NCBI GenBank assembly: GCA_963713825.1
Contig: CAVQNG010000003.1
Location: 224,001-288,000 of the forward strand
DNA from: an uncultured Acidobacteriota bacterium
GTDB taxonomy: Bacteria > Acidobacteriota > Thermoanaerobaculia > Multivoradales > JAHEKO01
Direction: 5' to 3'
Length of the DNA: 64,000 bases
The notes below the pieces were generated by a model. That model was not told the DNA's origin and ran no database searches. It saw only the letters and a list, made by a program, of their open reading frames with translations. Within the stretch, counting starts at the first letter, position 1. Every line of letters begins with the position of its first letter. Of this stretch, positions 35,688-44,765 are shown one piece after another. Position numbers and translations under genes: made by a program.

Positions 35688-37868
35688 TCAGCCGGAAACT
35701 GACACCGTGATGGAGCTGGAGTGAGTCTTGCCGGAATCCGGCTCGGTTGCGGTGACTTTCAGAATGTAGTCGCCCGGTTCCACACCGCTTGCACTCAGGG
35801 TTGCGGCCCATTGTGCAAGGCCAGGCTGGTCACCAGATCTCTGCTCGCCCACATTCAAGAAGACTCTTCCCGCTGGCTTTCTATCGAGCGTGAAAAGCTC
35901 GCCCTGGATCTGGACCGGGTCCCCGATGAAGTACCCAGAGAGGAGTACAGGTGTGCTCTGGCCGGGTACCAGGACAGGCTTGACGGCGGGCTCGAAGGCT
36001 TGTCCCTGCACCGTGAAGGGGTAATCGTGCTCGGACTCCTCGGCGCGCCGGCCACGGATGTTCAGCCACTGCCCCGCCGGTCCGGAAAACAGCGGCGGCA
36101 GCAGGGCCGGCTCCTGCTCACCGGCGTCCGGCACTCGAAACGGAGCTACCGCCACTCCCGAGGTGCCTGTCACCGCATTACGAACCAGCACCCTGGCGAC
36201 GTACTCGCCAGGCGGAACTTCGAACTGACTCCAGAGCTTCAGCCCCTTCTCCTCGAGGGCAGGACCCGCCTTCTGAAGATCGATGCCGAGGATCTGGCTG
36301 TAGTAGTCCCGCACCTCGCCACTCTTCGCGATGGCATAGGCGTAGATCTCAGCGGTGACCTGCCCGCCCTCGGTCCCCTTCAGCAGGTCTGCCCCATTGA
36401 TCTCGACCAACGAGGGTACATAGGCCGGTAGTGAGGCTGTTTTAAAGGGTGCGGCCAGGGTGGCGACGCCCAGCTCTCCGCCAGGCGCACCATAGAGCTG
36501 GGAGGCTGCCGACAGACTGCGCTCCGTCGTTGAGAGTTTGGCATAAGGCCTGGGCGCGAAATAGCCAGGCCGATGGACCAATCGAGCCCCTTTGGGACCG
36601 CCCTCGAGCTTCACCTTCAGTTTGTGGAACTCGCCATCCAGCTTCAGGTCCTCAGCCTGGAAAGCCAGTACATAGGTGACGCTGGTGCGCTCCAGCATCC
36701 TCTCCATGGCCTCGGACAGGTTGTTGAAGTTCTCGAAAAGCTCACCACCCGTGCCGTCGGCCAACATGAAGAGCCCTTGCTTGGTCTCTCGGCGAGCTCG
36801 TTCATCGACTCCTGATCGAAGGCCACCGATGTCGACAGCTTGGATTACGCAGTTAGCTCGCACGAGCTCTTGTAGCACGTGACGGAACTCGGTCTGAGCG
36901 GATGTGTCGCCGAAGCGCAGATTGCTGTCTACATCCTGATACTCGCCCCTGATGGCAGCGGTGTTCTGGCGCCTGATTGCCTCCTGCTCCTCACGAGTGG
37001 CGCCACCGCCCTGGCCGAGAATGATCGAGCTATCGAATCCCTCGGAGAGAAAGACGAGGTACTTTCGCCCATCGACGTTTCGTAGCAATTCGGCAACCTC
37101 TTTCAAAGACCTGGTCAAAGCCAGGATCGCCCTCTTTTCACTTGCCTGTCGAGTCGAAGTCTGACTCTGGGCAATCAGCGCTTCAAGCGTGGCTCGGGGC
37201 GTCGCTAAATCTGATTGAGGATAACGATCTTGGTTATCCTCGCCGGCCACTGCATTCAATGACGGCAGATCGCTTCCCCATGTTTCGGGCAGAGGTGCAA
37301 GCGTAAAGCCCAACGGGTCCCCTTTTGCCGCGACCAGCTGGGGAAGCCCCAAGGTGCCTATCGCAAGGTCCACTTGGCGACGGTCGGAGGAAAATCCGAG
37401 AATCAGCTGGTAGCCTCTGGAAACTTGGTGGGTCGCCACGCCGACCAGATCGGTCGGACTCAGACCGGTGGAGACGAGCTCTTTGGCTGCCTCGCGGGCC
37501 CGGACGATCGAATCGGGCGCAGAGAGTGACAGGTCGAAGAAGAAGAGGAACCGACGCCGGGCAGCGGCCGGAATCCAAGGCGCCATTGGGTCCGGCTCGA
37601 TACCTGCTCCTGACAGATCATAGGCGTCGAAGCCTGTCAGTTCCCGCCGCTTGCGGCCGTCCACGATCTCGAACTGGTCCGGGGTCAGTCCCCGTACCGG
37701 CTTGCCATCCTTGGTCACCTGCACGGGGACCTCGATGACGACCACCTCGGTCACATCCGACACGTTGGTCTTCTTGGCGGCCATAAGGCCGGAACTCGTG
37801 AGGATGCAGCCTGCCGAAAAGAGGAACCAGCCTCTCAGGTAGGTCGACCGTCTCGATGAATACCGCAT
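35688..37868 (-). CDS. VWFA-related acidobacterial domain protein
   Basis: Signal peptide; VPVQVTKDGKPVRGL, GRKYLVFLSEGF, LADGTGG and YVLAF..FHKLKVKL..HRPGY. Confidence 0.88.
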   Translation of the reverse strand: MRYSSRRSTYLRGWFLFSAGCILTSSGLMAAKKTNVSDVTEVVVIEVPVQVTKDGKPVRGLTPDQFEIVDGRKRRELTGFDAYDLSGAGIEPDPMAPWIPAAARRRFLFFFDLSLSAPDSIVRAREAAKELVSTGLSPTDLVGVATHQVSRGYQLILGFSSDRRQVDLAIGTLGLPQLVAAKGDPLGFTLAPLPETWGSDLPSLNAVAGEDNQDRYPQSDLATPRATLEALIAQSQTSTRQASEKRAILALTRSLKEVAELLRNVDGRKYLVFLSEGFDSSIILGQGGGATREEQEAIRRQNTAAIRGEYQDVDSNLRFGDTSAQTEFRHVLQELVRANCVIQAVDIGGLRSGVDERARRETKQGLFMLADGTGGELFENFNNLSEAMERMLERTSVTYVLAFQAEDLKLDGEFHKLKVKLEGGPKGARLVHRPGYFAPRPYAKLSTTERSLSAASQLYGAPGGELGVATLAAPFKTASLPAYVPSLVEINGADLLKGTEGGQVTAEIYAYAIAKSGEVRDYYSQILGIDLQKAGPALEEKGLKLWSQFEVPPGEYVARVLVRNAVTGTSGVAVAPFRVPDAGEQEPALLPPLFSGPAGQWLNIRGRRAEESEHDYPFTVQGQAFEPAVKPVLVPGQSTPVLLSGYFIGDPVQIQGELFTLDRKPAGRVFLNVGEQRSGDQPGLAQWAATLSASGVEPGDYILKVTATEPDSGKTHSSSITVSVSG

Positions 37869-37982
37869 CCGGATCTCCCGAGGCTAGGAGCGTTGAGGGA
37901 TGGGACATCTCCGCTGAACTTCGGTCCTCCAGAGTCTACCGCTTCAGAGACTCCTACGGTCAGACTTTCTCGGAGTTCCCTT

Positions 37983-38055
37983 CTGGGTGTATTACTTGAC
38001 ATATACACCCAGCAGGAGTACCCTCCCTTCAGGTGTATTGGTTTTCTAATACACC
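37983..38055 (+). promoter_or_regulatory. Two YtrA-type operators (TGTA-N12-TACA) overlapping a sigma70 promoter
   Basis: CTGGGTGTAT-N10-ATACACCCAG (37983-38012) and GGTGTATT-N8-AATACACC (38032-38055); TTGACA(37996)-N17-TACCCT(38019). Confidence 0.8.
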
Positions 38056-38070
38056 CTGAGGCGAAACAAG

Positions 38071-38451
38071 ATGATCCTGGTCGTCGATCCACACAGCGGC
38101 ACACCGGCCTACCGGCAGATCATGGAGCAGATTCGCTTTCATGTGGACAGTGGGCTGCTCGGCCCAGGTGACGACATTCCGTCCACGCGCACGCTCTCCG
38201 CGGAGCTGGGGGTCAATCCCATGACAGTCAGCAAAGCATTCAGCCTTCTGGAGGAAGAGGGTTTGCTGGAGCGCAGGCCCGGGCTGCCCCTGGTGGTGAG
38301 CCAGAGAGCCTCCAAGGATCAGCGAGCAAGCAAGCTCGAGCAGCTCGACGCTGCCCTGCGGCCTGTGGCCACGATGGCGCGACAGCTCGGTCTCGAATCG
38401 GAGGAGGCCGTCGAGGCCTTCCGCCGCCTGCTCGAAAGCAACGAGGAGTGA
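38071..38451 (+). CDS. GntR-family (YtrA subfamily) regulator
   Basis: PAYRQI..PSTRTLSAELGVNPMTVSKAF; short C-terminus; precedes an ABC ATPase. Confidence 0.92.
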   Translation: MILVVDPHSGTPAYRQIMEQIRFHVDSGLLGPGDDIPSTRTLSAELGVNPMTVSKAFSLLEEEGLLERRPGLPLVVSQRASKDQRASKLEQLDAALRPVATMARQLGLESEEAVEAFRRLLESNEE

Positions 38452-38454
38452 GTC

Positions 38455-39342
38455 ATGGACTACCCCATTCAATCCGAGAATCTGACCAAGCGATTCGACC
38501 AGATAACAGCGCTCGATGATGTAAGCCTGGCGATCCGGCCGCGGTCGATCGTCGGTCTGCTGGGAAGAAACGGCTGCGGCAAGACGACTCTCCTGCACCA
38601 CGCCGTCGGCCTCTACCTGCCAACGGAGGGTGCCATGCAGACCCTCGGCGCCGACAGCGCCCAGCTCGCCCATGAGCAGCTGACGCGCATCGGCTTCGTG
38701 CCGCAGGAGATTCGCCTGTTGGACTGGATGACCGTCGAGCACCATCTGCGCTACGTCTCGAGCTTCTATCCGCAGTGGGACTCCGACCGCCAAGACCGAC
38801 TGCTCGAGGACCTCGATCTCGACCCGAGCGCGAGGGTAGGGGCTCTGTCCACCGGGAACCTGCAGAAGCTGGCCATCCTCCTCGCCGTCTGTCATCACCC
38901 GAAATTGCTGATTCTCGACGAGCCGGTCAGCGACCTCGACCCCATCGTCAGAGCCCGTTTCCTCGAGTTCCTGCTCGAGGTGCTGCGGGAGGACAAGGCC
39001 ACGATCCTGGTCTCGAGTCACATTCTGCGCGATGTCGAGAAGATCGTCGACTGGGTTGTCTGCCTGGACGAGGGGCGCCTTATCGCCGATGCCGCTCTCG
39101 ATGACCTGAAGGAGCAATACGCCGAATGGCGGGTGGTTTCCTCAGGTGGTGACTTACCCCAGAGATTCACCGAGCCGTTCGTCCTGGAGCAACAAGTCAG
39201 CGGGAGGGAAGGTCTCCTCAGGGTCCACGTCGCCAGAGCGGATCTGAGCGCCTTCTGCGTGACCTGGGGTGTGACCATCGAGTCGCGGCCTTTGAATCTT
39301 GAGCAGATGTTCCCCCTCTTCCTCGAGGCGGCAGATCGATGA
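38455..39342 (+). CDS. ABC transporter ATP-binding protein
   Basis: GRNGCGKTT, LSTGN, LILDEP and SSH. Confidence 0.92.
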   Translation: MDYPIQSENLTKRFDQITALDDVSLAIRPRSIVGLLGRNGCGKTTLLHHAVGLYLPTEGAMQTLGADSAQLAHEQLTRIGFVPQEIRLLDWMTVEHHLRYVSSFYPQWDSDRQDRLLEDLDLDPSARVGALSTGNLQKLAILLAVCHHPKLLILDEPVSDLDPIVRARFLEFLLEVLREDKATILVSSHILRDVEKIVDWVVCLDEGRLIADAALDDLKEQYAEWRVVSSGGDLPQRFTEPFVLEQQVSGREGLLRVHVARADLSAFCVTWGVTIESRPLNLEQMFPLFLEAADR

Positions 39343-40802
39343 GCGACCTCAGAGCCTTCTTCACTCTCATCGGGCGCGATGCGTTCTTCTGGCTCGCCGC
39401 TCTCGGGTTGGGATGCGTCTCCATCCTCCTGGTCGCGATTACGCAGCCCCACGCTCCAACGGTCGACTACGTCGATGCCTTCATCCTGGCCAGCTTCGCC
39501 TTCCCCGCCCTGGCCGGTTGGCTGGCCGGGGCCATGATTCAGGAGCTGCAGACCTGCACCTTCACCTGGTCGCTTCCCAAAGTGCAGCCCAAGATCTCCC
39601 GAGGTTTCTTCACGTTCGGAGCGATCGTCACGGTCATCGTCGTGACCTTTGTCTCACTCCAGGGCTCGCCCTACAACCCGCTCGTGCTGGGAGCCGTCGG
39701 TCTGGCGGGCTATAGCTTCGGGGCCAACTACTACGGGCGGGTGACCTGGCACAGGACATGGCTCGCCACCATCTTTTCGCTGGCGGTCTTGTTCACCTCT
39801 CGAGGATTGGGCGGCCTGGCCAGTACGTATCCGGGGTCGACGGCCTTGTTGGCATTGGCGAGTGCCGGCTACTTCAGCTACGGCCTGCTGAGCGTCTCGA
39901 CCTTTCGGAAGGGGCGCTTTCGGTTACCGTCCCCTCTTCCAGGCGCCTTCTTCCTGCAGCGATCCCAGCGCTTCGAGCGACAGAAACAGGCGATGAGGAC
40001 ATCGCCTACCCGAGGGTGGCGATCGGGCTATCTAGGAAATACTCCCTGGAAATGGGTGCGTGCGGGTGTCCACGAAGCTTACGGCCCGCTGACTCTCGGG
40101 GTTGTCGGAAGGGCCATCGCCAGCACCTGGGTGTTGTGGCTGCTCGTCGCGCTTCACGCCTGGGTCGAGAGAGTCGAGGCGGGTGACGAGAGTTTTGGCA
40201 TCGCCCTCGGAAAGACCCTCCACGACGTTCTCCTCCGATCTCCGAATGTACCGCCGTACGGGGAGGAGGGGCCCTACGCGATGGTCGTCTTCGTCATCGC
40301 GGCCCTGGGCGCCATCCTGTGTCTCAAAGCCTCTGCGACTCCAAACAGCGGGGTGCTCTATCCCCTGTCTCGCAAAGCGTTTGCCGGCGTCGCCTTCCGA
40401 GGCGGGCAGGTAGAAGCCGGCTTCTACTTCGTGGCTATTTTCGTCGGCTTCCTTCTGGTGAGCCTGGTGGCCGGTGCACTGGTCGGCTACGAGACCCGCC
40501 TGGACTTCCTCCCCTTCTTTGTACGGCCGCTGATAGCGACTACAGTCCTGCTCCCACTGCTTCAATACGGACGGCTGCGAATGCAGGCCCCGGGTCGCCA
40601 GAAGGAGCAGAACGCCTTTCTGTTGGTCGTGGGCGGCGTCCTCGGGTTCGTCACGATGGTCTCGATCTGGACCTACTTCGCCCCACAGGTCTTCAGGACG
40701 ACGCGAGTCGAAATCGTCGCGTTCCTCGTCTTGCTGTTGACCTCTCGACTCGTCTACTGGGTCGCGGTGAGGCGCCACTTCGCCTCTGCCGACCTCGCCT
40801 GA
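39339..40802 (+). CDS. Multi-pass membrane protein, probable ABC permease
   Basis: About 12 TM segments; 4-nt overlap with the ATPase. Confidence 0.75.
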   Translation: MSDLRAFFTLIGRDAFFWLAALGLGCVSILLVAITQPHAPTVDYVDAFILASFAFPALAGWLAGAMIQELQTCTFTWSLPKVQPKISRGFFTFGAIVTVIVVTFVSLQGSPYNPLVLGAVGLAGYSFGANYYGRVTWHRTWLATIFSLAVLFTSRGLGGLASTYPGSTALLALASAGYFSYGLLSVSTFRKGRFRLPSPLPGAFFLQRSQRFERQKQAMRTSPTRGWRSGYLGNTPWKWVRAGVHEAYGPLTLGVVGRAIASTWVLWLLVALHAWVERVEAGDESFGIALGKTLHDVLLRSPNVPPYGEEGPYAMVVFVIAALGAILCLKASATPNSGVLYPLSRKAFAGVAFRGGQVEAGFYFVAIFVGFLLVSLVAGALVGYETRLDFLPFFVRPLIATTVLLPLLQYGRLRMQAPGRQKEQNAFLLVVGGVLGFVTMVSIWTYFAPQVFRTTRVEIVAFLVLLLTSRLVYWVAVRRHFASADLA

Positions 40803-40822
40803 CACGGCTGGTGTACCCTGAA

Positions 40823-41960
40823 ATGGTGACCAACTTCAGATTCCCTCGACTGGCGACGCTGGCCGTGGCGATCCTGGTGATCGGCTGCGGGGCCGACGAG
40901 GACAAACGAAATCCGGTCACCGCCGACCAAAATCACCTGGCACCTTCGGGGGCGATCGAGGTGGTGATCGAACTCGACACACCGCCCGGAAACGTCACGG
41001 TGGCGCCCGATGGGCGCGTCTTTTTCACGTTTCATCCGGCGGCGAAGCCGGCCTTGCATGTCGCCGAGGCTCTACCCGGCGGGAGCTTCGAGGTCTTCCC
41101 GGACATCGAGTGGCAGGAGCCGCGGGAGGACGGCCCCTACTTCGTTTCGCCTCTATCCTTGAGGGCCGACCGAAAAGGAAGGCTCTGGGTGCTCGACCAT
41201 GGAGACTTCGGCAAGGAGACGCCCAGCCTCACCGCCTTCGACATCGCCTCTCGAGTGATGGTCCATCGGGTCGAGTTCCCGAAAGACATCGCCAACTGGG
41301 GCTCGATGCTGAACGACTTCTGGGTCGACGACGAACGGGAGATCGTCTACATCGCCGATACCAGCGCCTACGACTTAGACCCCGCATTGATCGTCTACGA
41401 CATCGCTTCGCAAGGTGCCACCCGTCTTTTGGAGGATGACGTTTCGGTGAAGCCCGAGGACCATCACATGGTGGTCCAGGGCCGCTACATCAAGGTTTTC
41501 GGCATTCCCCTGCGGGTGGCTGTCGATTCGATCGCGCTGTCAGCCGACGGCTCGACGCTCTACTTCGGTCCCATGACCGGATCTCGCATGTACCGGATTG
41601 ATACCGAGTCTCTCCGTGACGCAAGCCTCGACAGAGTCCGAACTCGCGTCTCGAGTCCTGGAACATGGCAGCAAGCCCTCGACCGACGGCATCGCGGCCG
41701 ATTCGAAGGGCAACCTCTACCTCACCGCCATCGAGCACGACGCCGTCTGGGTGATGAGGCCCGATGGCAGCCTACAGGTGCTGGCGCAGGATCCCGAGCT
41801 TCTTTCCTGGCCAGACGGCGTCCACCTCTCTCCTGACGAGCGATGGCTCTACGTCACCGCGAGCGAGCTGCAGCATGTCCTGGGGGCCGATCTGGATGCG
41901 CTGCCGACGCAGCAGCCGTTTCGGATTCTGAGGATCCCGTTGCCAGCGGGCCTGCTGTGA
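40823..41960 (+). CDS. Major royal jelly protein/Yellow-like beta-propeller lipoprotein; frameshift near 41630
   Basis: Lipobox LVIG-C; PPGNVTV..DGRVF, LWVLDHG, YIADTS, DSIALSADG, then STDGI..LSWPDG in the second frame. Confidence 0.8.
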
Positions 41961-42013
41961 GATCGACCTGACCGCTCTCGCAGCCAGGCCTATCCCTCAG
42001 GTCAATTTACTCT

Positions 42014-42799
42014 TCAGGTTGGTTTGTTGGCCCGGAAGTTGATTCCGAGCGTGCCGAAGCTCGCCGCCGAGGACTGTTGAGGCGCACCGGCGAAGACCTC
42101 GTCTCGCCATGTGATCTCGAAGTCTTCGAACCCGGCCGCTTCGACCACCGCCTCGAGCTCTGCTTCCAGCAGAGCACCGGCGATTCAGCCCTTCCACAGA
42201 TCGATGTTCTGCTTGGCGCCATCCGGTACGGCCTTCTGCACCATGATGTCGCCGATCTGTAGCCTGCCTCCCGGCTTCAGGGCCCGATTCATCTCCTGGA
42301 AGAGGCCGACCTTGTCTGGGGCGAGATTCACCACTCCGTTCGAGATGATGACGTCGGCCCAACCGTCCTCCACCGGTAGCGACTCGATGAACCCCTGGCG
42401 GAACTCCACGTGGCCCATGCCGGCCGCAGCAGCAGCCAGTCGCGCCTTGCCGATCATCTCGGGCGTCATGTCGATCCCGATGACCTGTCCGGTGTGCCCG
42501 GCCAGCTTGCCGGCAATCAGGCTGTCGATTCCCGCACCCGAGCCAAGGTCTACAACCTTCTCGCCCTCTGCGATTTCACCCAGGCTGAATGGGTTGCCGG
42601 TTCCGGCGAAGGACTCGATCGCCGCTTCGGGGATCCCTTCGAGAAGGGACGGGGAGTACCCGAGAATTCCAGCCAGCTTCCTTCCGGTGTGGAAGTGGAA
42701 CCCCTTGTCAGGGTTCTTCGCGACGCTGGCGTACTCCTTCTGGATCTCGCCGCGCAGCTCATCGACATCGACGTTTGGAACGGGAGGGGCGACCGTCAT
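42014..42799 (-). CDS. ArsM-like SAM-dependent methyltransferase, predicted selenoprotein (UGA at 42185-42187)
   Basis: VVDLGSGAGID, GIDMTPEM and ISNGVVNL; reading LWKG-UGA-IAGAL continues in frame to TGA 42014 (..EAAGF.....GINFRANKPT). Confidence 0.85.
42149..42182 (-). promoter_or_regulatory. Bacterial SECIS-like hairpin
   Basis: After UGA: AU-CGCC-GGU-GCUCUGCU-GGA-AGCAGAGC-UCGA-GGCG; perfect 8-bp upper stem with a G-led loop starting 18 nt after UGA. Confidence 0.75.
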
Positions 42800-43305
42800 C
42801 CCTCGGCCCTCTCGTACTGGATCTCCATCGCCTTGAACTCCTGCCCCTCGCGGGTGAAGAAGCTCTCCATCGAGTGGTGGTCGTCGTCCTTCAGGGTGAT
42901 CACTGAGCGCTTCGACATCGTTCCGCCCTCGGGATCGACCATCTCACTGGTCATCGTCCAGACTTTGCCCGTCTCGTCCACACTGCCGGTCTCGAGTTGC
43001 ATTATGGTGCTGGCGTTGTCGATCCAATAGCCCTCGAACCGTTTGGCCATCCGGTTGTAGCCCCAGAAACCGTGGCCTCTGAAGCTCGGGAAGGGACCGT
43101 CATTGGGATCCCCGACGTATTTCTGGCGCAGGTAGCGCCCATCGAGAACCATGATGTTGGTCATGGTGCCGGTAGAGACCATGGGGTCTCCGGGGCCCAT
43201 CCAGAGTTGCACCTCGGCACGAAAGGTCCCGAGGAACGGCCTCAGGAGCTTGTGCTCCGGGCCTGGAGACATGGCTTCCGCACCCGCCTGTGCTTCTTCC
43301 GTCAT
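42796..43305 (-). CDS. DUF1579-like protein
   Basis: PGPEHKLL..G, GRYL.Q..G.GFWGYN..F.GYWIDN.ST and MEIQYER; RBS GGAGG. Confidence 0.8.
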   Translation of the reverse strand: MTEEAQAGAEAMSPGPEHKLLRPFLGTFRAEVQLWMGPGDPMVSTGTMTNIMVLDGRYLRQKYVGDPNDGPFPSFRGHGFWGYNRMAKRFEGYWIDNASTIMQLETGSVDETGKVWTMTSEMVDPEGGTMSKRSVITLKDDDHHSMESFFTREGQEFKAMEIQYERAEG

Positions 43306-43309
43306 GAAC

Positions 43310-44765
43310 TCACCTCCGAAACAGCGTGAATGTTGCGGGCATTCTAGCCGATCGGGCGCGAGACCACTCGAGTGCGACAAGGGCGGCGAAGAGTCCATAC
43401 TCCAGCCAGAGCCACCATGCTCGCTCGATGCCGTCGAGGTAGATCAAGTAGGACAGCAGGCTCAGCCCTGTCAGGCCAATCCAGGACCAGCACCCCACAA
43501 CAGCCGCCAAGGGCAACGCCCAAAGCAGATACCAGGGCATGACAGCAGAGTGCAGGAGCACGACCGCCGCGAGAATGAAGAAAGCGACCCTGAGGATGCT
43601 GTCCTTCGAGGGGCGTGAGAACCACGGCAAGACAACAATCGCCACCAGGCTCAGGAGCTTTGTCGTCCAGTGGGCCCAGGCCGTCGGATCGGAGGTGCCA
43701 GCCACCTTTGCCAGCCAGCGGATAGCGGCCCAGGGGCCGGAGTTGAAGGTCCATTCCCGGGCGTAGGCACCCAGGCCGCCCGACAGTGCCACCAATCCAC
43801 CGAGCATTGGCAGGCTACCGAGCGCAAGCACGGCGAAAAGAACGACACCAGAGGACAGGTCGGGTGTGCCGTAGGAAGAGAACTCCGAGAGCCGCCGACC
43901 CTACCTTCGCCAGGATGCTGAGCGCCAGAGCTCCGAGTGCCGCCGCCTGGCGCTTCTGGACCAGGCAGAGCAGGGCCAGCATCATCAGAAACACCATCAC
44001 CGCGTCGAGGTGGCCCGAGCCGGCGAACTCCTTGATCGCCAGCGGATTCCACGCGTAGAGGAGGACGTACGATCGGTTCCTCCCAACGGCTCCAAGAAGC
44101 GAGAGCACCACCCAGCAGGTACCCAGATCGGCGAGGACGATCAGCAGCTTCCAGACGAAGACACTGGCAGGTGCCAGCCGATTCGAGAGGCCAAAGAGAT
44201 ACTGGGCCAAGGGCGGGTAAACCGTTCTGTAGCCCTGGAAGCTGACGTTGTCGACGACATCCCACCAGACTTCTTCTTCAAGAAGCGCGGCGTGGGGCTC
44301 CGATCCTTCCTCGGCAGAAGTGATGACTTCCTGCGGCGTAGTCTCGTAGGGAGAGACCCCGTTGGCCGTCAGATGCCCGTCCCAGAGATACCGCCAAACA
44401 TCGTTGTCGTAGATGAGAAACGGGGAATAGCCAGTCGCTGTTCCCGAGAGGTCGTTCGCCAAGGCTGCCACCGGCCTATCGTGAGGCAAGCCCGCAAAGA
44501 GTAGAATGAAGCGGAAGACCACCGCGAAGGCCAGAATCGTGGCCACCGAGGCGCGCTTTCGGTCGCTCTTGCTGTGAACCAGCAGAGCAGCCACTGCGTA
44601 AATAGCAAATAGCGCCCCAAAGGCCACGAGGAAGCCGACCACATCTCGCAGTGCGTTGGAGAATTGCAGGCGGAAGGCGACAAGGAGATAGACGAGAGCG
44701 GAGAGGGACCCGAGAAGTGCCACCGGTACCCGTCCTTCGAGTCGTTTCCAAAACCTGGCCATCAT
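43310..44765 (-). CDS. GT-C-type integral membrane glycosyltransferase (GT87/DUF2029-like); frameshift near 43840
   Basis: NDVWRYLWDG, TVYPPLAQ, YAWNPL..EFAGSGHLD, WTFNSG and MPWYLLW. Confidence 0.8.

Follow-up and report, generated by a model that had tools for sequence, protein, structure and literature searches.

A stop-interrupted methyltransferase gene of an uncultured Acidobacteriota bacterium probably encodes a selenoprotein from a distinct clade of the ArsM fold

Introduction

In the window analysed here, a stretch of 64,000 nucleotides from an uncultured Acidobacteriota bacterium (GenBank assembly GCA_963713825.1, contig CAVQNG010000003.1, positions 224,001 to 288,000), a methyltransferase gene on the minus strand appears to stop at a TGA while its reading frame runs on beyond it. 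This raises the question of whether the TGA is a stop or a codon for selenocysteine (Sec) and, in the second case, what the resulting enzyme would methylate. Based on the homologs, the RNA structure behind the TGA and the genome's own Sec machinery, we conclude that the apparent stop at 42187..42185 almost certainly encodes Sec. It is also highly likely, judging from the sequence comparisons, that 42799..42014 (-) forms a single intact gene, whose product is a selenoprotein of 261 residues with an ArsM-like fold, belonging to a distinct clade that we call clade A. The identity of the methylated atom is a separate matter, for which we offer a more tentative reading.

A reading frame that continues past its TGA

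Under translation table 11, the open reading frame (ORF) at 42185..42799 (-) encodes 204 residues, the last of which read LWKG before the TGA at 42187..42185. In the same frame 56 more codons follow (IAGALLEAEL...FRANKPT), up to a second TGA at 42016..42014, and reading the first TGA as U (Sec) yields a product of 261 residues with no cysteine (Cys) and with NKPT as its C-terminus. Both the coordinates and the translation agree with a first-pass annotation of the window, made from the sequence alone, which had noted the stop after LWKG, the continuation to 42014 and the length of 261 residues. The features on which the argument rests are the following.

42014..42799, minus strand: coding sequence of the proposed Sec methyltransferase, 261 codons including one Sec, plus the terminal TGA at 42016..42014
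42185..42187, minus strand: proposed Sec codon UGA, residue 205, in a UxxG motif (U-I-A-G), aligned with the Cys of ArsM chains and of Cys-type clade members
42017..42184, minus strand: coding part after the UGA, residues 206-261, with helix 212-221 and strands 225-233 and 251-258
42157..42175, minus strand: hairpin resembling a bacterial Sec insertion sequence (bSECIS), with an 8-bp stem (42175..42168 with 42164..42157) and a GGA loop at 42167..42165

Relatives of this gene share the frame on both sides of the TGA. All 11 full-length copies from 10 related genomes (97% to 48% identity), which span several genera and a second family, carry one internal TGA in the same column, and their protein sequence is conserved past it. 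Among 29 clade loci, taken from one-genome-per-species contigs of Acidobacteriota, Gemmatimonadota, Chloroflexota, Actinomycetota (Gaiellaceae, Thermoleophilia, Acidimicrobiia), Nitrospinota and Holophagae, the Sec column holds TGA in 27 and TGC in two. Over the genome copies examined, Sec is commoner than Cys at this nucleophile column, with 38 TGA-bearing copies, spread over six or more phyla, against two that encode Cys. The residue aligned with U205 is Cys in 17 of 18 database homologs, with W in the remaining one, and Cys also occupies this column in the ArsM chains of the Protein Data Bank (PDB) and in all 51 canonical ArsM loci. In the part behind the UGA, 7/7 comparisons show more synonymous than non-synonymous differences (e.g., 21 vs 9 against the locus L025), and these counts indicate that the frame there is under purifying selection.

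Alternatively, the TGA could be a real stop, leaving a truncated methyltransferase of 204 residues or a pseudogene, with the downstream part being a remnant or a small GTG-initiated ORF (42148..42014). Gene callers indeed store the gene and many of its relatives in this short form, proteins of 204-208 residues making up 16 of the 120 best database hits, and the energy of the hairpin is unremarkable when a single sequence is considered. Nevertheless, we regard a real stop as very improbable, considering that the TGA is fixed at one column in copies across phyla with frame and protein conserved beyond it, that synonymous differences prevail downstream, that the C-terminal 57 residues, confidently modelled, are predicted to be needed for the fold, and that full-length Cys forms exist. 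Among the relatives and clade loci examined, we found no homolog truly terminating at the Sec column.

A bSECIS-type hairpin behind the UGA

Nine nucleotides separate the UGA from a perfect hairpin, GCUCUGCU-GGA-AGCAGAGC, which folds on its own at -11.7 kcal/mol. The criteria for bSECIS elements given in section 5 of PMC13188914 are a loop of 3-9 nt, a stem of 4-16 bp, a G in the first two loop positions, 16-37 nt from the UGA to the loop and a minimum free energy of at most -7.5 kcal/mol. With a loop of 3 nt (GGA), a stem of 8 bp, a distance of 17 nt and the energy stated above, the hairpin of the window falls within all of these limits. An Rfam scan of 41800..43000 at E ≤ 10 returned two chance matches and no SECIS family, a result that is uninformative since bSECIS elements of the present family are absent from Rfam.

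The hairpin is kept in 38/38 TGA-bearing copies and absent from both Cys-encoding loci (L051 and L058). In the alignment of the 38 rows, 34 of them distinct, 93.8% of the cells are paired, and the seven core pairs fail in two cells only. Compensatory changes occur at three stem pairs (UA->CG, GC->CG and UA->AU), the covariation score was reached by none of 500 shuffles, and slid registers pair at 28-54%. The UA->CG change is found among rows in which the peptide encoded over the stem has changed, and three Actinomycetota rows have ALPCAGW in place of ALLEAEL with the stem retained. As the stem is kept while the peptide over it changes, we argue for selection at the RNA level.

Selenocysteine machinery and the decoding of the UGA

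The genome assembly (5.4 Mb, 96% complete) was searched for Sec machinery and contains selA (460.9 bits), selB (320 bits plus a C-terminal part) and selD (339.5 bits), all above the curated cut-offs, as well as a tRNA-Sec (69.2 bits, above its curated cut-off) that ARAGORN reports as tRNA-SeC with anticodon tca (UCA). The genome's own selD gene (C25:839157-840080 (-), locus L010) also encodes a selenoprotein, with one in-frame TGA at TTGG-U-AAK. Its SECIS matches the hairpin of the window in geometry, with 9 nt between the UGA and an 8-bp stem that is capped by a GGG loop, and serves as an internal control. By analogy with Sec decoding in bacteria, the hairpin at 42175..42157 would recruit SelB and Sec-tRNA(Sec) during translation, the UGA at 42187..42185 would then be decoded as Sec, and translation would terminate at the second UGA, which is not followed by such a hairpin.

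The first-pass annotation had proposed a selenoprotein with a perfect hairpin and a GGA loop starting 10 nt after the UGA, and had named several ways of checking this. The hairpin is where it was said to be (42175..42157, 8 bp), and the proposal is borne out by the pairing of Cys and UGA in homologs, with Cys at the U205 column in 17/18 of them, by the agreement with the bSECIS criteria, by the presence of selA, selB, selD and tRNA-Sec, by the conservation past the UGA and by the lack of any homolog found truly ending there.

A further explanation is that the TGA is decoded as Trp, Gly or Cys, through an altered code or near-cognate read-through. In favour of this explanation, the column is occupied by W in two full-length proteins of the database (P0019, P0027) and by R in a third (P0036). 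On the other hand, TGA also ends the methyltransferase gene and the overlapping upstream gene, the full set of Sec genes is present alongside a selD of the Sec type, TGA copies have a SECIS-type hairpin that the Cys forms have lost, and relatives show Cys, the customary counterpart of Sec, in this column. Together, these observations make decoding as another amino acid hardly credible. The W and R of the three database proteins may represent a TGA called under another code, or real TGG/CGA variants.

Some observations weigh against decoding as Sec. The 76-nt single-sequence fold is ordinary for GC-rich DNA (z = -1.17), with 27 of 200 shuffles folding equally well. The hairpin also overlaps codons of a conserved peptide, and part of its conservation is thus at the protein level. 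Finally, in two DNA and two RNA metagenome runs no contig bridges 42185-42187 with 31 letters on each side; the contigs at this locus are fragmentary and break at the hairpin, and those from the RNA runs are relatives at roughly 90-97% likeness.

A methyltransferase of the ArsM fold

The product is an S-adenosylmethionine (SAM)-dependent methyltransferase with the fold of ArsM and AS3MT. Pfam assigns to it the class I SAM methyltransferase domains Methyltransf_31 (97 bits), Methyltransf_25 and Methyltransf_11, and a phmmer search of the PDB gave CrArsM, CmArsM and human AS3MT as the top solved relatives (E 1e-27 to 1e-19; ArsM chains 1e-27 to 5e-26). An AlphaFold model built with 34 sequences, which includes residues 206-261, has a mean predicted local distance difference test score (pLDDT) of 91.9 and a predicted template modelling score of 0.92. 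In the part after the UGA, the pLDDT per 10-residue block is 87 to 98, except for values of 77 and 69 around residues 231-250. The top structures in Foldseek are the ArsM entries 4fr0 and 6cx6 (template modelling (TM) score 0.74-0.75, root-mean-square deviation 2.3-2.4 A). In the model, the residues after the UGA complete the ArsM-like fold with a helix and two strands.

Aligned with the solved ArsM chains, the protein has U205, T67 and G155 opposite the Cys of GEC(L)(A/G)GAL, GCGNP and SNCV, respectively. The alignment thereby places Sec205 at the position of the metalloid-binding Cys of the C-terminal domain (Cys224 of CmArsM). The motifs that characterize the protein lie as follows.

42682..42699, minus strand: F-H-F-H-T-G, residues 34-39, followed by R40; N-terminal motif of clade A, where clade B is gapped or Cys-rich
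42590..42604, minus strand: GTGNP, residues 66-70, with Thr instead of the Cys of canonical GCGNP (alignment)
42524..42556, minus strand: SAM-binding motif I, VVDLGSGAGID, residues 82-92 (Pfam), invariant in clades A and B
42323..42343, minus strand: SNGVVNL, residues 153-159, with Gly instead of the Cys of canonical SNCVINL (alignment)

A distinct clade without the other Cys sites

We compared 80 loci, 29 of clade A and 51 of canonical ArsM (clade B). Cys is found at the GxGNP column in 0/27 clade-A loci that have this column, where it is replaced by T, V or M, compared with 50/51 clade-B loci. At the SNxV column, the 28 clade-A loci that have it carry G in 26 and S in two, and never Cys, vs Cys in 51/51 loci of clade B. 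The third site is TGA in 27 and Cys in two clade-A loci, and Cys in 51/51 of clade B. At the N-terminus, the clade-A motif FxFxTGR is well conserved, with F34, F36, T38 and G39 in at least 96% of the rows and R40 in 93%. The first-pass annotation had already described the replacement of the canonical Cys sites by GTGNP and SNGVVNL, in agreement with the alignment to the solved chains. Its statement that the protein has no Cys at all holds for the copy in the window and does not extend to the clade, as the orthologs have 0-4 scattered, non-conserved Cys, the N-terminal Cys pair being absent.

A maximum-likelihood tree of 89 rows, from which three partial rows were left out and for which the canonical loci and the full-length database proteins were each thinned to every third entry, separates clades A and B with a Shimodaira-Hasegawa-like approximate likelihood ratio test value of 99. 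Within clade A, Sec is found on deep branches with Cys nested among them, and at least five changes between Sec and Cys are required. By both alignment and tree, the protein of the window belongs to this distinct, phylum-spanning clade A. Scores against the arsenite methyltransferase family NF008823 (cut-off 263 bits) are 229.5 bits for the window protein and 217-259 bits for five Cys-type relatives, all below the cut-off, while the canonical paralog in the same genome reaches 329.3 bits.

The criterion stated in an arsM survey (PMC5552862) is a SAM domain together with at least three of four conserved Cys (44, 72, 174 and 224 of CmArsM). The window protein has the 224-equivalent alone, as Sec; position 72 corresponds to T67 and 174 to G155, and there is no N-terminal Cys. 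Such marker surveys would either drop clade-A proteins, with fewer than three Cys, or count them as arsenic methylases.

Relation to catalogued selenoproteins

This kind of selenoprotein is already known, the pair of Sec and Cys at this column having entered the catalogues in 2007. The catalogue entries in PMC13188914 and PMC9312934 include an 'Arsenite methyltransferase' selenoprotein (NF008823, UxxG, WP_011987699.1), whose source is given there as Fomenko et al. 2007. The gene of the window resembles this selenoprotein in its ArsM fold, in the UxxG Sec at the Cys of the C-terminal domain, in the bSECIS directly 3' of the UGA and in its truncation by gene callers. Among 401 Bacillota genomes, we found two members of NF008823 above the cut-off, L157 (330 bits) and L158 (322 bits), which read LYCG-U-V(T/A)GAS, five other TGA flags being terminal stops. 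Both retain the N-terminal Cys cluster, GCGNP and SNCVIN, which indicates that Sec is normally used without loss of the other Cys, whereas the clade of the window has lost all three sites and the window protein scores below the cut-off of the family.

Fusion selenoproteins with the same motif UxxG, listed in PMC13188914 and attributed there to Haft & Tolstoy 2025, are NF041537 (ArsM/AhpD), NF041536 (ArsM/DUF2284) and NF047649 (methyltransferase/UXPK-star). Sharing the UxxG Sec motif with these families, the window protein is nonetheless a stand-alone protein with one Sec, without an AhpD or DUF2284 domain or a UXPK C-terminus, and it scores far below their cut-offs (NF041537, 228.3 vs 510 bits; NF041536, 220.1 vs 575 bits; NF047649, 195.8 vs 460 bits). 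The fusion profiles give clade-A proteins 196-248 bits in alignments that begin near profile position 7, and the canonical paralog 158-173 bits in alignments beginning near position 40, so the methyltransferase parts of the fusion families are probably close to clade A. True fusion members above the cut-off were found neither for NF041537 in 251 Acidobacteriota genomes nor for NF047649 in 301 Chloroflexota genomes, NF041536 not having been searched.

Compared with canonical ArsM and AS3MT (CmArsM 4fr0/6cx6, CrArsM 5evj, human AS3MT 8xt7), the window protein has the same fold (TM score 0.69-0.75) at about 30% identity, with the SAM motifs, SN.V.NL.PDK and G(C/U).(A/S)GA in common. It differs in being shorter (261 residues), in lacking three of the four conserved Cys and in having FxFxTGR in place of the N-terminal Cys cluster. 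The Cys-type proteins of clade A are closer, with 58-68% identity over the full length and with AGTGNP, SNGV and LWTG(C/U)IAGAL in common; they have Cys in place of Sec, and the two loci examined at the DNA level (L051 and L058) are those without the SECIS hairpin. These Cys-type members are named 'methyltransferase domain-containing protein' at NCBI and, for many of them, 'arsenite methyltransferase' at JGI. Our literature searches found no published function for them. The main text of the BSepDB paper (PMC13326102) does not mention methyltransferases, and the top match of a search on Se and Te methylation, PMC10128142, deals with a thiopurine-type methyltransferase, which is unrelated.

Taken together, these comparisons indicate that the gene is mis-annotated and in fact codes for a known kind of selenoprotein, from a clade that falls outside the defining tests of ArsM proper. 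What is contributed here is its placement in a distinct clade A, with T and G for two As-binding Cys, scores under the NF008823 cut-off and no ars neighbours. The gene and many of its relatives are stored as 204-residue fragments, and no NCBIfam model names the stand-alone form.

What the enzyme may methylate

The first-pass annotation had suggested that the substrate or mechanism may differ from As(III) methylation. This gains indirect support from the clade, whose members are without the remaining As-binding Cys, were not encountered in ars operons and co-occur with canonical ArsM. To compare the neighbourhoods, we considered the nearest two ORFs on each side and scored as ars-type an ArsR-type regulator, ArsA, ArsP, Acr3/SBF or an ArsC-type phosphatase. 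Such neighbours occur at 0/28 clade-A loci (95 ORFs examined) and, by the same procedure, at 12/42 canonical loci (150 ORFs; 42 of the 51 loci included), with a Fisher p of 0.001, or 0.004 with three Lysinibacillus loci counted once. A stop-free canonical ArsM paralog is present alongside the Sec gene in 8/10 genomes. In the genome of the window, this paralog lies at C3:971838-972731 (L042:1339-2232) and has N-terminal CC clusters, GCGAP, SNCVINL and GCVAGA.

Our tentative proposal is that the single Sec (or Cys) would covalently hold a soft atom beside SAM for methyl transfer, with a chalcogen as the foremost, although far from secure, candidate. This atom could be the sulfur or selenium of a persulfide or (per)selenide, or tellurium. 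A thiol-liganded metalloid is also possible, whereas the classical methylation of As(III) held by three thiolates is ruled out under this proposal. The hint at a chalcogen comes from Cys-type members that carry a C-terminal TusA-like domain (PF01206), found in 17 of the 120 best database hits, and from DsrE-like proteins next to 2 of 28 clade-A loci.

An ordinary arsenite methyltransferase that uses Sec is the main competing explanation. Sec205 would then bind As(III), MAs(III) or As(GS)3 together with small-molecule thiols. All top matches in sequence and fold are ArsM or AS3MT, the Sec lies at the column equivalent to the As-binding Cys224, the catalogued family with the identical UxxG motif is named 'arsenite methyltransferase' in the entry cited above, and the same label is given by JGI to many Cys-type members of the clade. 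This explanation must, however, accommodate one conserved Cys position out of four, compared with the three or more stated in the survey (PMC5552862), a score below the NF008823 cut-off, the absence of ars neighbours at 28 loci compared with their presence at 12 of 42 canonical ones, and a canonical ArsM with an upstream regulator-like ORF already present in the same genome. Furthermore, the Bacillota Sec-ArsMs keep GCGNP and SNCVIN, and the presence of Sec alone does not remove the need for the other Cys. We consider classical arsenite methylation unlikely, and methylation of a chalcogen taken over from persulfide or perselenide carriers somewhat likelier, with the remainder going to other substrates.

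Extended to the clade as a whole, the chalcogen proposal would make clade A a non-arsenic, selenium-dependent methyltransferase, in which S, Se or Te is carried as a mixed (per)selenide/persulfide on the single Sec or Cys; we put this forward as speculative and, on balance, improbable in this complete form. Here the fused TusA-like carrier would feed the atom to the enzyme in the Cys forms, and the carried atom would be methylated and released as volatiles of the methanethiol, methylselenol or methyltellurol type. If this were true, sediment and soil bacteria would volatilise chalcogens by a widespread route that has gone unrecognised and is mis-counted by arsM surveys.

Several points count against a substrate other than arsenic. 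Every one of the nearest relatives with a solved structure is an As(III) methyltransferase, and the Sec lies exactly at the As-binding position. An arsenic substrate, such as a glutathione-liganded or already methylated arsenical, is possible. The Fisher p given above is overstated, as related genomes are not independent. In addition, neighbourhoods are poorly conserved across phyla, and the links to TusA and DsrE concern a minority of cases. With either substrate, Sec as the only nucleophile would offer a clean system in which to study the benefit of Sec in metalloid or chalcogen chemistry.

Occurrence in genomes and metagenomes

The Sec methyltransferase was detected in 20/251 sampled Acidobacteriota genomes (about 8%), with no fusion form, and also in at least five other phyla. 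The stretch of the window is present, partly or nearly whole, in sediment and marine metagenome runs of 11 studies. In two DNA metagenome runs, the summed depth of the contigs shows an 8-10 fold rise that coincides exactly with the Sec codon and the hairpin (42155..42205), and contigs break at 42175/42177. Both the rise in depth and the breaks are expected if a near-identical stretch of Sec codon and hairpin is common to many related organisms.

In the same assembly, the contig C23 (7025 b) is colinear with window positions 37432..43388 (81% DNA identity). The Sec methyltransferase (92% amino acid identity) and the DUF1579 gene both recur on this contig, which may represent a co-binned relative or a diverged duplication.

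Neighbouring genes and further observations

Directly upstream of the methyltransferase lies the following gene.

42796..43398, minus strand: DUF1579 gene (PF07617, 124.8 bits), whose stop overlaps the methyltransferase start (ATGA)

DUF1579 adjoins the methyltransferase in 6/52 loci, that of the window (L021) included, and within the genus only. We rejected it as a functional partner on account of this limited adjacency. Recurrent neighbours of the 28 clade-A loci are all in the minority, namely a second methyltransferase at five, a major facilitator superfamily (MFS) transporter at three and the DsrE-like protein mentioned above. At three distant clade-A loci, the adjoining second methyltransferase is a different class I enzyme (L047:5172-5795, L061:5139-5963 and L065:3916-4491), and in L047 and L061 an MFS transporter adjoins it in turn.

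Among the Cys-type members, those fused to the TusA-like domain (P0016, P0020, P0028, P0033 and others) have a conserved GCADGP motif, and longer forms of 432-438 residues (P0041 and P0100) have an extra C-terminal domain. The canonical ArsM paralog of the genome is preceded by a Cys-rich ORF of 169 residues, which resembles a winged-helix regulator and has no NCBIfam match at E ≤ 1e-30.

On the plus strand of the window, at 40319..41960, a gene for an MRJP/SGL-like lipoprotein is split over two frames near 41590-41640. Positions 1-170 of the Pfam MRJP model match one ORF and positions 181-276 the next, while the counterpart in the same-genus genome G004 is intact, with 377 residues (L022:2340-3473). 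The split is a frameshift that may represent an assembly error or a pseudogene.

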